A stretch of 64,000 bases of DNA, taken from Candidatus Doudnabacteria bacterium (lineage in GTDB: Bacteria; Patescibacteriota; Doudnabacteria; UBA920). A model generated the notes under the pieces. The model was not told the DNA's origin. It did no database searches and saw nothing but the letters and a program-made list of their open reading frames with translations. Within the stretch, counting starts at the first letter, position 1; each line of letters opens with the position of its first letter. The stretch spans positions 11,915-75,914 of the forward strand of contig CAWINB010000001.1 in assembly GCA_963837465.1 (NCBI GenBank), written 5' to 3'. Both the position numbers and the translations under genes were made by a program. Shown piece after piece: positions 30,455 through 37,698 of this stretch.

Positions 30455-30500
30455 TGTCATTCCGAGGAGGAGCGCGCCCGACGGCGAAGCAGTCTTTTTC
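30455..30500. repeat. Half copy (left arm) of the palindromic element family.
   Basis: gtcattccgaggaggagcgcgcccgacggcgaagcagtct matches the left arm GTCATTGCGAGGAG...CGACGAAGCAATCT. No right arm. Confidence 0.5.
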
Positions 30501-30506
30501 AGCTTA

Positions 30507-30802
30507 TGCTTAGCAAGACTTACTGTGTTTGCATCCTAACGAATTTTAATAACGCTGTTCTCTATACTGAAGTTACAAATGACCTGGTGCGCAGAGTTTA
30601 TGAGCATAAAAGTCATCTCATTAAAGGGTTTACCGACAAGTATAATGTGATGAAATTAGTATGTTTTGAGTCTGCGGATGAAATCGAAGGCGCCATACTG
30701 AGAGAAAAACAAATTAAAGGCGGCTCCCGTCGGAAGAATATTGATTTAATTAATTCTAAAAATCCCGCTTGGAAAGATTTATATAATGAAATCGCCGGAT
30801 AA
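30507..30802 (+). CDS. GIY-YIG nuclease family protein (YhbQ/UPF0213-like, ~98 aa).
   Basis: AVLYTEVTNDLVRRVYEHKS...GFTDKYNVMKLVCFESADEIEGAILREKQIKGGSRRKNIDLI matches the GIY-YIG fold order. Sits between atpF and atpH, flanked by element copies. Confidence 0.8.
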
Positions 30803-30905
30803 GTGTCACCGCGGGGAAGCGCATTCGACCGAAGCGATCTTATCTGGAATTAAATAAGGATTGCTTCGTCGGCCAGCCAAAGCCCTGGCCTCCTCGCGAT
30901 GACAC
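30803..30905. repeat. Full palindromic element (103 bp), intergenic, inverted orientation relative to the in-frame copies.
   Basis: GTGTCACCGCGGGGAAGCGCATTCGACCGAAGCGATCT ... GGATTGCTTCGTCGGCCAGCC...CCTCCTCGCGATGACAC. Termini GTGTCA/TGACAC, inner CGAAGCRATC pair. Confidence 0.65.
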
Positions 30906-30915
30906 TCACCATATT

Positions 30916-31305
30916 ATGCCTAAACTCACCCCAACCCAATACGCCCAGGCGCTTTACGACGCGGTCTTGGAAACCAAGGATCACGACGTGGTTTTGAACA
31001 ACTTCGTCAAGATTTTGGCGCAAAACGGCGACTTGGCCAAACACGACGAAATCCAGGAAGAATACCGCAAAATTGATATGAAAGCCAAAGGCATTAAAGA
31101 AGTCCAAACCACCTTTGCCCACGACCTGCATAACAACCATCAAATAGTAGAAGAACTCAACAAAGTGGTAAAAGGCAAAGCTGAATTTAAATCCAAAATA
31201 GACGAAAACATTATCGGCGGAGTGGTGATAAGGGTGGACGACACGCTGATTGACGCGAGCGTGAAGACGCAGTTGAGGAATTTGAATAAGTCTTTAAAAT
31301 TTTAG
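30916..31305 (+). CDS. atpH: F0F1 ATP synthase subunit delta (OSCP). Short at 129 aa, possibly N-terminally shortened.
   Basis: C-terminal IIGGVVIRVDDTLIDASVKTQLRNL typical of delta. Start is 10 nt after the palindromic element. Confidence 0.7.
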   Translation: MPKLTPTQYAQALYDAVLETKDHDVVLNNFVKILAQNGDLAKHDEIQEEYRKIDMKAKGIKEVQTTFAHDLHNNHQIVEELNKVVKGKAEFKSKIDENIIGGVVIRVDDTLIDASVKTQLRNLNKSLKF

Positions 31306-34568: not shown

Positions 34569-34569
34569 A

Positions 34570-34932
34570 ATGGATATCTACCCAGAATTTGGATCACTGC
34601 TCGAGAGACAAGAAGCTTTAAATAGATTATACGCCCTCAGAGAAGCCCAGGAATCTTTTGAAAACTACGCGGATCCCAAATTAAAAGAATACAAATTGAG
34701 TTCCGGTATCGAAAACAATAGTTTTGACACCGTTACACAACTAAAATTTAGAATAGCTAACCAGACAGATCAGATAGAAAGATTAATTTCTTTATTTACC
34801 GGGGGCAAAGAAGGAGAAGCCACGGTGACAATTAATCAGCTTATTTCAAATCATTTGGAGATCATAGGTCAATACCACTCGTGTCCGGTTAATTTTACCA
34901 TAATTGAGCCTGGTTCTGAGTTTGTGTGTTAG
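34570..34932 (+). CDS. Hypothetical protein between atpG and the IS transposase.
   Basis: 120-aa ORF with balanced composition. 3' end overlaps a 16-bp hairpin (34905-34950) and the transposase 3' end. Confidence 0.35.
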   Translation: MDIYPEFGSLLERQEALNRLYALREAQESFENYADPKLKEYKLSSGIENNSFDTVTQLKFRIANQTDQIERLISLFTGGKEGEATVTINQLISNHLEIIGQYHSCPVNFTIIEPGSEFVC

Positions 34933-36061
34933 TTTCTGGTAACACAAACTCGGAAACCAGCTTAGCTAAAGGAGTTTTATCAAACATGGAAACACTTAAT
35001 ATCTGTAGAATTTCGTAAGAGTTGCGGTTAATGTTCAGCTTCTTTTTTAAAATGGCAACCAGCAGGTAAGCGCAGAGCGCGATACAAATTTGGGTCTTAA
35101 CCGCGTTCTCAGACCGGCCCCAGAAACTCTTAATGCTCAAATGCTGTTTAATCCATTTAAAAAATAATTCAATCTGCCATCTGTACTTGTAGAGCAGGGC
35201 CACAGTTCCCGCGGATAGATTAAAGTTATTAGTCAGAAACACGTAAGTGGAATTGGTTTCGGCATCGTGGTATTTAATCCGTCTCAGCTTTTCCGGATAA
35301 TCTTTAGCGGCATAGTAGTTACTTAGCCGGATTATTTGATCGCAGATGACACCGCTAGTTTTATCAACGGGGCCGGAATACAACCTTTTGTAGGCCATAT
35401 TGTCCTTGGCTCTGGTGACAAAGAACGCGTTGGCCTGATGAATTCTGTAAAGCCTTTCAAAGTCAATGTAGCCCCGATCCATAATGTAGTAAGCGCCGGC
35501 TTCGTAGACTAATAAATCCAGAAAGTCTAAATCATGGGTTTTTCCCGAGGAAATATGGAAAAAAGCCGGAATACTGCCTTTGAGTTCCATCGCCAGATGC
35601 AGTTTAACCGCCGCCCTTACTGTCTTGAGTTTCGCCCAGGGAAAAAGATTCAGACAAAGCTCAATGGTCGTGGAATCGATGACATAGACTGTGCCGCCAA
35701 GTTCCAGATTAAAAGTTTTGTCTGTTACATACAATTTTCTGGCCTCATTAATCAGCACTTGGGCGTAATCCCAATAAATGCGCCAGTCACGATGTTCGTT
35801 GGCATCGGCTAAAGTGGTACGGGTAACTGCCGAACAAAAACCTAAGTGGTAAAGTTTCTCATGCTGAGCGTTTAAGCAGACCACGATGTCACGCAAACTT
35901 TCTCTAAAGGATAGCTGGCCAAAGGCCATAGCCAGAAATTGTTCCCAGCAGGAGAAGTTTTTAACCCGATACTCGCCCCTGTACCTGGCAACACATTTAT
36001 TGAATTTGTAACGAACTACTTGTTCCATAATCTGTGAAAAAACATACTTTCCTTGGTTCAT
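34895..36061 (-). CDS. IS4-family DDE transposase, antisense to the atp operon, between atpG and atpD.
   Basis: DDE_Tnp_1-like motifs: VIDSTTIELCL (D1), YYIMDRGYIDF (D2), YKYRWQIELFFKWIKQHL (Y-R-E-K signature). Confidence 0.8.
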   Translation of the reverse strand: MNQGKYVFSQIMEQVVRYKFNKCVARYRGEYRVKNFSCWEQFLAMAFGQLSFRESLRDIVVCLNAQHEKLYHLGFCSAVTRTTLADANEHRDWRIYWDYAQVLINEARKLYVTDKTFNLELGGTVYVIDSTTIELCLNLFPWAKLKTVRAAVKLHLAMELKGSIPAFFHISSGKTHDLDFLDLLVYEAGAYYIMDRGYIDFERLYRIHQANAFFVTRAKDNMAYKRLYSGPVDKTSGVICDQIIRLSNYYAAKDYPEKLRRIKYHDAETNSTYVFLTNNFNLSAGTVALLYKYRWQIELFFKWIKQHLSIKSFWGRSENAVKTQICIALCAYLLVAILKKKLNINRNSYEILQILSVSMFDKTPLAKLVSEFVLPETNTQTQNQAQLW

Positions 36062-36246
36062 AAAGATAATCAAAGGTTAATTCCCTTAATTATCCCATAG
36101 CCCAAATTCAAATCGAAAAATATGTTTTTGTCAGATTACGGCTCAATTAAAATCATTTTAAACTTTTATTAAAAATTAACCGGACACGAGTGAGGTCAAT
36201 ACAATAGAATTTTTAGTGACAAGTATACAACTAATCTGAAAACACT

Positions 36247-37698
36247 ATGAACAAAGGAACAATATCGCAAGTTATCGGGCCGGTGGTGGATGTTAAGTTC
36301 GAGAAGGATGTGCCGGGAATTTATAATGCGCTGGAGATAGAGATGTCGAGTGTCATTGCGAGGAGTGCACCCGACGAAGCAATCTCTTCCACAGATAAAA
36401 AGATTGCTTCGGATGCACTCGCAATGACACAAAAAGCGAGCAAGTTAACTCTCGAAGTACAGCAACAACTCCCCGGCGGCATTGTCCGCACGGTCGCTAT
36501 GTCATCGACAGATGGTTTAAAGCGTGGTATGGAAGTTATAGATACCGGCGCGGGAATATCGGTTCCGGTGGGTAAAGTAACGCTGGGACGCATTTTTAAC
36601 GTGCTGGGCGAGGCTGTGGACGGCGAGCCTACGCCGGAATCGGACAAAAAATACACCATCCACCGTCCGGCGCCAAAATTCACGGACCAATCCACCAAAA
36701 CCGAAATCCTGGAAACCGGAATTAAAGTTATAGATTTAATCTGCCCCATCCTTAAAGGCGGCAAGGTAGGTTTGTTCGGCGGCGCCGGCGTGGGAAAAAC
36801 CGTTATCATCCAGGAACTGATCAACAACATTGCCAAAGCGCACGGCGGAGTTTCCGTGTTTGCCGGAGTAGGGGAGAGAACGCGAGAGGGAAACGATCTG
36901 TACCACGAAATGAAGGACGCCAAAGTTTTGGATAAGCTGGCCATGGTTTTTGGCCAAATGAACGAACCGCCGGGAGCCCGCGCGCGCGTGGCTTTGTCCG
37001 GACTTTCCATGGCCGAGTATTTCCGCGACGAGCAAAACCAGGATGTCCTGATGTTTATAGACAACATTTTCCGCTTTACCCAGGCCGGTAGCGAAGTATC
37101 CGCTCTTTTAGGTCGCATTCCGTCAGCTGTGGGATATCAACCGACGCTCGCAACCGAAATGGGCGAACTCCAGGAACGCATCACCTCCACCAATAAAGGC
37201 TCCATTACCTCCGTGCAGGCAGTGTACGTGCCTGCCGACGACTTAACCGACCCGGCGCCGGCCACAACTTTCGCGCACCTGGACTCCACGGTAACCTTGT
37301 CGCGCGCGTTAACAGAAATCGGCATTTATCCGGCCGTGGATCCGCTGGATTCCACATCCACAATTCTTGACGCCAACATTGTTGGCCGGGAGCATTACGA
37401 AGTGGCCCGCGGCGTGCAAAAGACACTGCAGCGCTATAAAGATTTGCAGGACATTATAGCGATTTTGGGCATGGAAGAATTGCCGGAAGAGGATAAAGTC
37501 TTGGTCGGCCGCGCCCGAAAAATCCAGCGCTTCCTTTCCCAGCCGTTCCACGTAGCCGAAGTCTTTACCGGCGCGCCCGGAAAATTTGTTTCGCTGAAAG
37601 ATACGATTAAATCTTTTAAAGAAATATTAGATGGTAAGCATGACGACAAGACGGAAGCAATGTTTTACATGAAGGGCGGAATAGATGAGGTAAAATAA
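36247..37698 (+). CDS. atpD: F0F1 ATP synthase subunit beta carrying one in-frame palindromic-element insertion near the N-terminal barrel.
   Basis: Walker A GGAGVGKT, 483 aa. Insert [30 protein letters not shown] between ALEIEM and [11 protein letters not shown]. Confidence 0.95.
36352..36428. repeat. Palindromic element copy (77 bp) inside atpD, in frame, same orientation.
   Basis: GTCATTGCGAGGAGTGCACCCGACGAAGCAATCTCTTCCACAGATAAAAAGATTGCTTCGGATGCACTCGCAATGAC. Confidence 0.8.

Follow-up and report, generated by a model that had tools for sequence, protein, structure and literature searches.

How do core subunits of the ATP synthase come to carry copies of one short palindrome within their coding sequence, in frame and without a stop codon? 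The question is raised by the F-type ATP synthase operon of a Candidatus Doudnabacteria bacterium, which belongs to the Candidate Phyla Radiation (CPR), in a 64,000-nucleotide stretch of contig CAWINB010000001.1 that we analysed over its full length and refer to as the window. Three near-identical nested palindromes of 81-87 nt, all stop-free and in frame, are inserted in atpG (two copies) and atpD (one copy), and a small GIY-YIG nuclease gene flanked by related palindromic sequence lies upstream, between atpF and atpH. With a probability of roughly 0.7, we read the inserts as miniature derivatives, similar to Rickettsia palindromic elements (RPEs) and devoid of an open reading frame (ORF), of a nested-palindrome mobile element that carries a ~95-aa GIY-YIG gene in its hairpin loop. 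The inserts themselves are confirmed; with three of them in two core F1 subunits, they extend a known phenomenon to a new lineage and a striking host. What looks new is the nuclease encoded in the loop, together with an apparent superfamily of GTCAT hairpins. The blocks that interrupt the two genes are the following.

33736-33822, plus strand: insert 1 in atpG, 87 nt, AtpG residues 62/63-90, predicted local distance difference test (pLDDT) 47-55.
34216-34302, plus strand: insert 2 in atpG, 87 nt, AtpG residues 222/223-250, palindrome slightly decayed, pLDDT 47-49.
36350-36430, plus strand: the atpD insert, 81 nt, covering AtpD residues 35/36-61 and located at a turn of the N-terminal beta-barrel.

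Copy 1 (33738-33820, atpG) has the ends GTCATTGCGAG...CTCGCAATGAC, and both termini are perfect in copy 3 (36352-36428, atpD), while copy 2 (34218-34300, atpG) has one mismatch in its left terminus (GTCATAGCGAG) and a decayed right inner arm (AGATTGCGCC). The true inverted termini are 13 nt long (GTGTCATTGCGAG / CTCGCAATGACAC), and the blocks that they delimit measure 87, 87 and 81 nt, i.e. 29, 29 and 27 codons. All three inserts lie in the same orientation, with the longer arm first, and share one reading frame in which GTC encodes valine, resulting in the pattern VIAR(R)SA..DEAIS...KIA..ALAMT with no stop codon. The added peptides are VIARRSASDDEAISPPDEKIASAALAMT (AtpG 63-90), VIARRSASDDEAISSQDKKIAPDALAMT (AtpG 223-250) and a stretch of 26 residues in AtpD (36-61), and the junction peptides between host and insert that are expected on translation include GANGVIAR, ALAMTDTPLLLQSFPK and ALAMTQK. 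An earlier description of this locus, made from the letters of the sequence and referred to here as the original prediction, had reported these copies with their common orientation, common frame and lack of stops, all of which are present in the sequence. Its perfect 11-bp termini hold for copies 1 and 3 but not for copy 2, with its left mismatch and degraded inner arm, and fall short of the real 13 nt; its position for copy 1 (33737-33819) is one base off, whereas those of copies 2 and 3 stand.

The copies are real and go beyond chance: an exact 11-mer is expected to occur ~0.03 times in the window. Folding of the RNA, a check proposed along with the original prediction, gives z-scores of -3.6 to -7.4 for the copies, better than every shuffle (0 shuffles fold as well). 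The RNA hairpins have energies of -32 to -53 kcal/mol, and folding of the hairpins as DNA yields z-scores of -5 to -8. The four full copies, the two lone arms and the only nuclease gene all fall within 30.39-36.43 kb; no further copy was found in the window, the remaining ~39 kb of low-GC (guanine-cytosine) sequence containing zero. The copies are locally clustered around the nuclease gene, within 6 kb. An Rfam search of 28-39 kb of the window at E<=1 returned chance microRNA and snoRNA matches only, and no family.

Are these segments native parts of the two proteins? When aligned with solved gamma subunits, AtpG falls into three blocks (1-66, 96-218 and 250-337) with breaks exactly at the inserts, and AtpD aligns with solved beta subunits as 1-34 and 66-150, the break again being at the insert. 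All gamma and beta subunits in the PDB are without the inserts; the beta subunit of Bacillus PS3 already has a longer loop at the turn where the AtpD insert lies. In AtpD, the 69 profile positions of the Pfam beta-barrel domain are stretched over 96 residues. We compared AtpG with 120 homologues, some of which are named Candidatus Doudnabacteria or Patescibacteria by their source. The nearest orthologue (P0125, from the operon L202) is 81% identical over the aligned columns, is 286 aa long and has neither insert; AtpD of the same operon (455 aa) is likewise without its insert, and the operon has no nuclease gene. In a codon alignment of the window with L202 the loops are too diverged to place the boundaries of the empty sites at base level. 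A second relative, L203, lacks insert 2 and retains only a decayed copy at site 1, with the outer stem kept, the inner stem lost and a fold z-score of -1.9. Relative to the window copy, the L203 copy has in-frame gaps of 6 and 3 nt, as would be expected for an insert that persists as translated sequence.

In the AlphaFold model of AtpG, built on 114 sequences, the core is predicted at pLDDT >90, while residues 61-90 and 221-250, for the most part coil, drop to 47-55. In this model site 1 comes after the N-terminal helix and site 2 before the C-terminal helix, near the position of the regulatory insertion of the chloroplast gamma subunit. Judging by the model, the inserts are probably disordered loops. 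The length of AtpG varies from 274 to 403 aa among CPR orthologues (alignment of P0122-P0240), and three of its loops, near residues 62, 133 and 220, hold in-frame inserts in varied states of decay. These come from at least four palindrome families, with the patterns VIARSA..ALAMT, VIPS.SEGSL..MT, VIPE..LSGIQ..LDPGS..GMT and GHPSLAGGE..PPxKGEY, and on this comparison AtpG is a hotspot for palindrome insertions in the clade.

The recurrence of similar peptides at the same loops of several CPR orthologues is what could be expected if the segments were native, lineage-specific loops of AtpG and AtpD. Yet the same DNA palindrome is intergenic elsewhere in the window and is found at hundreds of unrelated loci, and the closest orthologue does without the inserts. 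Nor would an assembly artefact account for a nuclease locus that is reproduced in an independent assembly (L121), or for insert-carrying orthologues found in many samples; we regard both of these explanations as effectively refuted. Patchy in distribution, variably decayed and missing from the nearest orthologue, the inserts fit insertions rather than a native domain, and insertions are what the orthologue sequences indicate them to be. As the original prediction had it, they are lineage-specific, being without counterpart in L202 and the PDB, and lie in loops of low pLDDT (47-55). It had also named the same peptides in orthologues from unrelated lineages as the mark of a native domain; they do occur at the same loops in related CPR AtpG proteins, but patchily and not in the nearest one, so that this mark has to be read narrowly.

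A different way for a gene to tolerate such a segment would be never to translate it, with the insert removed from the mRNA in an intron-like fashion or bypassed by the ribosome. The perfect outer stem would bring the two junctions together, and CPR genomes have many introns in their rRNA and tRNA genes (PMC11270868, PMC13011429). Set against this, the length of each of the three inserts is divisible by three and none has a stop in the host frame, while the lengths of 125 genomic copies of the palindrome are uniform modulo 3, and decay in L203 has proceeded by in-frame indels. Lengths of 77-87 nt are far too small for group I or group II introns and Rfam yielded nothing, grounds on which an intron or intein reading of the inserts was rejected. 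We also know of no bacterial machinery that religates an mRNA after excision of a hairpin. Altogether we consider untranslated inserts highly improbable.

The palindrome is widespread. We scanned one genome per species with the pattern GTCATTGCGAG-N45-75-CTCGCAATGAC, and viral contigs in the same way, which recovered copies with exact termini at >=120 genome loci and on >=120 viral contigs. The genome loci listed come from Bradyrhizobium, sphingomonads, Mucilaginibacter, Pedobacter, Flavobacterium, Chloroflexi, Planctomycetota, Cyanobacteria, Deltaproteobacteria and Patescibacteria. The family is thus cross-phylum (Proteobacteria, Bacteroidota, Chloroflexi, Planctomycetota, Cyanobacteria and viral contigs) and not specific to the CPR; of the RPE-like family in a CPR-like genome that had been proposed, the RPE-like in-frame palindromes stand and a restriction to the CPR does not. 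Its members share the outer stem GTCATTGCGAG/CTCGCAATGAC, an inner stem (GAAGCAATC followed by C or T, paired with GATTGCTTC) and a variable loop of 8-49 nt, into which the inner stem runs for 2-3 bp with varying sequence. The variable middle commonly holds CGNAGC or GAG-CGNAGC-GAC, the alternative being a local mini-hairpin, which may lie in either arm. The short CGNAGC form was counted in 171 arms and the long GAG-CGNAGC-GAC form in 100, with long arms mostly paired with short ones (L001-L120, L210-L329). Usually the middle reads G-CGNAGC, with all four bases seen at N, and so matches d(GCGNAGC), whose DNA mini-hairpins are unusually stable.

Copy length modulo 3 is uniform (44/44/37 among the 125 genomic copies) and 106 of the 125 lie outside long ORFs; coding copies are therefore a filtered minority. 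The elements have 2.8-3.1 open frames of 6, compared with 2.0-2.3 after shuffling. Independent in-frame copies are present in GuaA (GMP synthase), UvrA and a phage portal protein, with Pfam domains on each host ORF. A protein search with the doubled insert peptide gave no host-protein candidates.

Such strong folds (-32 to -53 kcal/mol), with units in sense orientation within strings of co-directional genes, could also be expected of RNA or DNA signals recruited by the host in the atp operon, e.g. a terminator, an RNase processing site, a stability element or a translation pause. Covariation between the arms at the N of CGNAGC, matched in 27 of 44 cases against 14.1 expected, is in line with this as well. 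The operon of the closest relative, on the other hand, works without the hairpins, other copies are found at unrelated sites, in unrelated genes and in other phyla, and there is neither an Rfam family nor a sense-strand G-U bias. Moreover, the in-gene copy of L203 has lost most of its fold and is kept in frame nonetheless. A role as host signals is accordingly very unlikely.

If the inserts belong to a mobile family, what might move it? The spacer between atpF and atpH offers a candidate.

30392-30452, plus strand: lone left arm of a second palindrome family with ~13 nt of its loop (GTCATCCCGG...CCGGGATCCAT), matching the L202 hairpin.
30454-30497, plus strand: left arm of family 1, ending 8 nt before the ATG of the nuclease gene.
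30506-30802, plus strand: gene for a 98-aa GIY-YIG nuclease (Pfam PF01541, E=6.6e-9), UPF0213/Slx1-like, catalytic domain only.
30803-30905, no strand assigned: complete 103-nt hairpin of family 1, fold z-score -6.1 (RNA) and -5.0 (DNA).

The arm at 30454-30497 shares 89% and 80% identity with the left arms of the two atpG inserts and is complementary to the right end of the 103-nt hairpin. The latter has its longer arm on the right, i.e. in the orientation opposite to that of the inserts, and folds into a three-way junction formed by an outer stem, an inner stem-loop and, within the right arm, a local hairpin; a homologous hairpin of the same shape occupies the same position at locus L206. 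A half copy and an oppositely oriented 103-bp copy bracketing a 98-aa GIY-YIG gene had been predicted originally, and both are there, the half copy at 30454-30497 rather than 30455-30500. The spacer thus runs from the second-family arm through the family-1 arm, the nuclease ORF and the 103-nt hairpin to the end ...GATGACAC just before atpH. In L202 the same spacer contains a complete 145-nt hairpin of the second family (DNA fold z-score -8.3), which reads GTCAT-CCCGGA...TCCGGG-ATCCAT ... GGAT-TCCGGA...TCCGGA-ATGAC, and the homology of 30392-30452 to it stops where the family-1 arm begins. Since the window keeps only the left arm and ~13 nt of loop, the nuclease unit lies where an older hairpin had its loop and right half. 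The locus is also present in L121 (Logan contig ERR10755945_1130463), an independent short-read assembly that ends inside the 103-nt hairpin ~100 nt past the nuclease gene, which suggests that the repeat breaks assemblies and is multi-copy in the source genome.

We surveyed the flanks of the nuclease gene at 80 metagenome loci fetched by homology to the nuclease protein. An arm or hairpin lies within <=160 nt upstream of the ORF in 74 of 79 loci and downstream in 74 of 77, and at only one of the 80 is neither side flanked. A left arm is directly upstream in 46 of 79 loci (a further 8 have the outer terminus only) and a right arm directly downstream in 42 (again with 8 more that have only the outer terminus); both arms, with the ORF in the hairpin loop, are found at 30 loci, and complete hairpins on both sides at 10. 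The density of termini is 9.5 per kb within 180 nt of the ORF versus 0.37 per kb at >500 nt in the same loci, a 26-fold difference. The nuclease and the arms are therefore statistically linked, and the possible association raised in the original prediction turns out much stronger than proposed. The unit of arms and ORF has a median length of 376 bp, its stop codon often falls within the right arm (TGAGATTGC), and the gene upstream points the same way as the ORF in 45 of 54 cases, the gene downstream in 41 of 50. Miscalled N-termini of homologues read through the arm (...VIARRSASDDEAILSM-LTK..., MCHCEEECIRRRSNLFM-LTK..., LPVIASEAKQSMEHQ...), the homologue P0005 has VIARRSASDDEAI upstream of its start, and the N-terminal extensions of family representatives read VIA, VIL or VIP arms.

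Individual loci illustrate the arrangement, and among close relatives the unit is found in different conserved operons. A simple unit with the ORF in the loop lies between gatA and gatB (L205), a unit with the order seen in the window (left arm, ORF and full hairpin) lies between rplB and rpsS (L206), and an Azospirillum plasmid has a unit between sufB and sufC. In cultured bacteria, all 7 of the 7 nuclease homologues examined are flanked by hairpins of other families, with ends of the GTCAT...ATGAC type and in one case GTCGC...GCGAC. The homologue of Planktothrix is flanked by GTCATTCTGAG... hairpins and that of Azospirillum by GTCATCCCCGCGAAGGCGGGGATCCAG... hairpins; in Rhizobium (GTCATCCCAGGGCTTGACCCTGGGATCC... 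hairpins) and Novosphingobium (the GTCGC...GCGAC ends) the ORF sits between a left and a right arm, and the homologues of Spirosoma and Photobacterium are hairpin-flanked too. In Neisseria gonorrhoeae the homologue is surrounded by hairpins of the GTCATTCCCGC...GCGGGAATGAC type, with arms different from those of the window family; these hairpins resemble, and may correspond to, the dRS3/NIME repeats, the dRS3 core being ATTCCCN8GGGAAT. This last locus (L332) is on NZ_CP119140.1, which at 2.17 Mb is labelled a plasmid and is evidently the chromosome, and its GIY-YIG homologue is unannotated.

The 98-aa protein has 4696 homologues, thousands of them at 60-77% identity, and a profile search at E<=1e-10 retrieved 7,972 representatives of 50%-identity clusters. 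In the family profile Y20, R30, E67 and N86 are invariant and Y9 and G22 near-invariant, so that the catalytic Tyr, Arg, Glu and Asn are kept; the family proteins are 95-98 aa long and consist of the catalytic domain alone, with no separate DNA-binding domain. AlphaFold models the window nuclease at pLDDT 93. Its sole sequence match in the PDB is BH0048 (1zg2, UPF0213; hmmsearch E=7.6e-6), and Foldseek ranks 1zg2 first (E=5e-5), followed by Slx1 (probability 1.0, TM-score ~0.6) and the N-terminal domain of UvrC. UPF0213/COG2827, represented by BH0048, and the Slx1 nuclease domain are accordingly the best matches in sequence and fold. BH0048 is a protein of no known function. Slx1 cleaves branched DNA, which would fit a hairpin or cruciform substrate here, but it has a RING/PHD domain and needs Slx4, whereas the window nuclease is a GIY-YIG domain by itself. 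Our literature search found no report tying BH0048/UPF0213 or Slx1 to repeats. The window copy of the nuclease has an intact ORF but departs from its family at near-invariant positions, namely by Y9C (GIY motif), G22E (YIG motif), a change of Y to C within LVYFE, and K78N; in the homologues P0002 and P0003 the Tyr and the Gly are intact.

Taken as a mobile element with miniature derivatives, the locus can be pictured as follows. A nuclease unit consisting of left arm, ORF and complete hairpin would have settled between atpF and atpH, and mini copies would have landed 3-6 kb downstream of it, twice in atpG and once in atpD. The nuclease may recognise the branched or hairpin DNA formed by the arms, with GTCAT...ATGAC as the outer and GAAGCAATC/GATTGCTTC as the inner stem, and could cut at this structure, perhaps in a transposase-like manner at the GTCAT ends or else as a homing enzyme that enters hairpin loops. 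Copying might then proceed by break repair, with the ~30-45-bp conserved arms providing homology; alternatively, a hairpin intermediate might be excised and reinserted. Nuclease activity on the arms, the copying mechanism and hence mobilisation by the nuclease are what we infer from sequence. The inserts would have survived because their length is a multiple of three, the VIA...LAMT frame is without a stop and surface loops are tolerant of extra residues. They would be transcribed and translated as ~27-29 extra, probably disordered residues, and are most likely neutral or slightly costly passengers rather than functional domains; the copies in the ATP synthase are survivors of a filter and no special adaptation.

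Several results weigh against this explanation. Neither a target-site duplication nor a clear target consensus was seen at the four insertion sites. The dinucleotide of the inner stem (AA/TG/CG) does not covary between arms (61 observed, 59.7 expected) and there is no strand-specific G-U signal, with 9 G-T mismatches on the sense strand versus 16 A-C; taken with the covariation at the N of CGNAGC, the evidence on structure is mixed. Looking outwards from ORF-less copies, tblastn detected a nuclease homologue in 0 of 120 genome loci (~8 kb per locus), and only 1 of 120 viral loci has one. The co-occurrence of GIY-YIG homologues with the element that had been suggested for this family hence holds from the side of the nuclease, whose loci are arm-flanked, and fails from the side of the ORF-less genome copies. 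As the mini copies vastly outnumber the nuclease ORF, another enzyme could move them. In addition, Y9C and G22E indicate that the nuclease of the window may be inactive or decaying.

These observations lend themselves to a reversed order of events, in which the nuclease is a homing parasite of hairpins that are spread by another enzyme, cutting empty loops and copying itself in by means of the arms. At 30 loci the ORF is exactly in the loop with both arms intact, ORF-less copies far outnumber those that carry an ORF, and the same nuclease family occurs inside several unrelated arm families. The unit in the window, furthermore, sits in an earlier hairpin belonging to another family, which the closest relative has in intact form. 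However, no alternative transposase with matching ends was found, the repeats of the IS4-like element in the operon (described below) being unrelated, and the arms beside the ORF are of the same subtype as the local mini copies. The arm families that host the ORF all have GTCAT...ATGAC-type ends, which points to recognition of ends rather than of loops. We judge such a parasite unlikely, although the idea draws some force from the missing target-site duplication, from the large excess of ORF-less copies and from the damage to the local nuclease.

Returning to inserts as derivatives of a nuclease-bearing element, how do they compare with known systems? RPEs are palindromic repeats of ~100-150 nt found in frame in protein genes (Ogata et al. 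2000, 2002, summarised in PMC10969869). By their description, they resemble the inserts as small palindromes in frame in unrelated, often essential genes, which add peptides at sites compatible with the fold (in the window, between secondary-structure elements at pLDDT 47-55) and of which several families coexist, as do the four or more palindrome families in CPR AtpG loops. Copies here are somewhat shorter (77-103 nt), and instead of being restricted to Rickettsia the family has a CPR host and is spread over numerous phyla and viral contigs. A 2024 review of prokaryotic miniature transposable elements with inverted repeats (MITEs) presents RPEs as the extreme in-frame case and mentions no enzyme for them and no GIY-YIG link (PMC10969869), whereas the window family is tied to a GIY-YIG ORF.

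With repetitive extragenic palindromic (REP) sequences, the REPIN hairpins and their REP-associated tyrosine transposases (RAYTs; PMC2817692, PMC3116915), the family shares short hairpin palindromes, a cognate nuclease gene flanked by palindromes and an excess of non-autonomous copies over the enzyme gene. The enzyme, though, is a GIY-YIG protein and not an HUH tyrosine transposase; REP palindromes are 20-40 bp with a GTAG or CGTC tag, as opposed to 77-103 nt with the termini GTCATTGCGAG and no tag; the palindromes here are nested, with two stems plus local hairpins and an ORF inside the hairpin loop; and the unit moves between loci in related genomes, with copies inside genes. Like Correia, ERIC and BOX elements and other MITEs (PMC10969869), the copies are small, have terminal inverted repeats (here 11-13 bp), lack coding capacity and are occasionally fused in frame. 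Unlike them, none of the four copies has a flanking direct repeat, while the insertion sequence in the same operon has a 9-bp duplication; no parental insertion sequence with a DDE transposase shares the ends, the ORF between matching arms being a GIY-YIG gene; and, unusually for MITEs, the internal stems are conserved from phylum to phylum. The GIY-YIG homing endonucleases I-TevI and Seg (PMC3943268) have the same type of catalytic domain, with Tyr, Tyr, Arg, Glu and Asn conserved in our family, and are similarly small genes wedged in sense between conserved genes of essential operons, for which spread by break repair is plausible. They differ in that the protein here is ~95 aa long with no linker or DNA-binding domain, and in that there is no intron (Rfam was negative) and the gene is embedded in a palindrome that also exists without the ORF.

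The element thus lacks defining traits of MITEs derived from insertion sequences, of REP/RAYT and of homing endonucleases of the I-TevI type. In functional terms it is selfish DNA inserted in frame in the manner of RPEs, in which a palindrome family is paired with a cognate nuclease gene much as in REPIN/RAYT. Searches of the literature by terminal sequences and by peptides found no prior description of the element or of its link to GIY-YIG, subscription-only literature being outside that search. We put forward, tentatively and as something we would not yet bet on, that the hairpins and the loop-encoded Slx1-like nuclease may constitute an unrecognised cross-phylum class of mobile elements, in which a minimal structure-specific nuclease would mobilise branched or hairpin DNA and of which the VIA..LAMT, VIP..GMT and VIL..QDD repeats, dRS3-like repeats and possibly RPEs would be non-autonomous members.

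The surroundings of the inserts have features of their own. The operon, on the plus strand, comprises atpB, atpE, atpF, atpH, atpA, atpG, atpD and atpC.

29829-37698, plus strand: host atp operon, with atpF at 29829-30383, atpH at 30916-31305, atpA at 31616-33118, atpG at 33552-34568 and atpD at 36247-37698, the ORFs all intact.

An IS4-like insertion sequence lies between atpG and atpD (34876-36192), with a transposase ORF on the minus strand (34895-36073; DDE_Tnp_1 and DUF4372), perfect 21-bp inverted repeats and a 9-bp target duplication (GGTCAATAC); it interrupts the 3' end of a small ORF at 34570-34932. Derivation of the palindromes from this element was considered and rejected, its 21-bp inverted repeats being unrelated. 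In the spacer between atpA and atpG (33112-33541) there is a 135-aa ORF (33124-33531) for a 23S rRNA intervening-sequence protein, an Avd-like four-helix bundle, and the 29-nt stop-rich inverted repeats that flank it make this a second ORF-in-a-hairpin arrangement in the atp operon; in L202 and L203 the same spacer contains unrelated small ORFs without Pfam matches. Other atp spacers (37699-37778, 29739-29816 and 29272-29358) hold low-complexity hairpins rich in stop codons, that after atpD reading TAGCGTTTAG.../...CTAAACGCTA, and these stop-rich spacer hairpins could be terminators or another class of repeat. Further away, GC content drops sharply from 66-76% (1-18600 of the window) to 30-50% (18600-64000). 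The high-GC block encodes a Tn3-family transposase (383-3442; DUF4158 and DDE_Tnp_Tn3), and at the junction near 18,600 a lepA-like gene is cut in its C-terminal part; the block looks like a chimeric join or foreign DNA, not like normal CPR sequence.

In-frame colonisation of essential genes by palindromes has hitherto been treated as a peculiarity of Rickettsia, and it is now seen in a CPR bacterium, in its ATP synthase. That inserts of several palindrome families occupy the same AtpG loops in this clade points to a recurrent route by which protein loops evolve in reduced genomes. For annotation and assembly there are practical consequences, since such repeats break short-read assemblies and give rise to spurious N-terminal extensions and hypothetical ORFs. 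To our knowledge, no class of prokaryotic transposable elements has been reported with a GIY-YIG nuclease; the loop-embedded ~95-aa enzyme is a candidate for the one that moves the palindromes and provides a testable hypothesis of how they do so, and a minimal nuclease that recognises both DNA structure and sequence could be of biotechnological interest. Finally, if the hairpins and the nuclease do represent a new class of element, essential proteins would have in it a general source of in-frame insertions into their loops, above all in the reduced genomes of the CPR.

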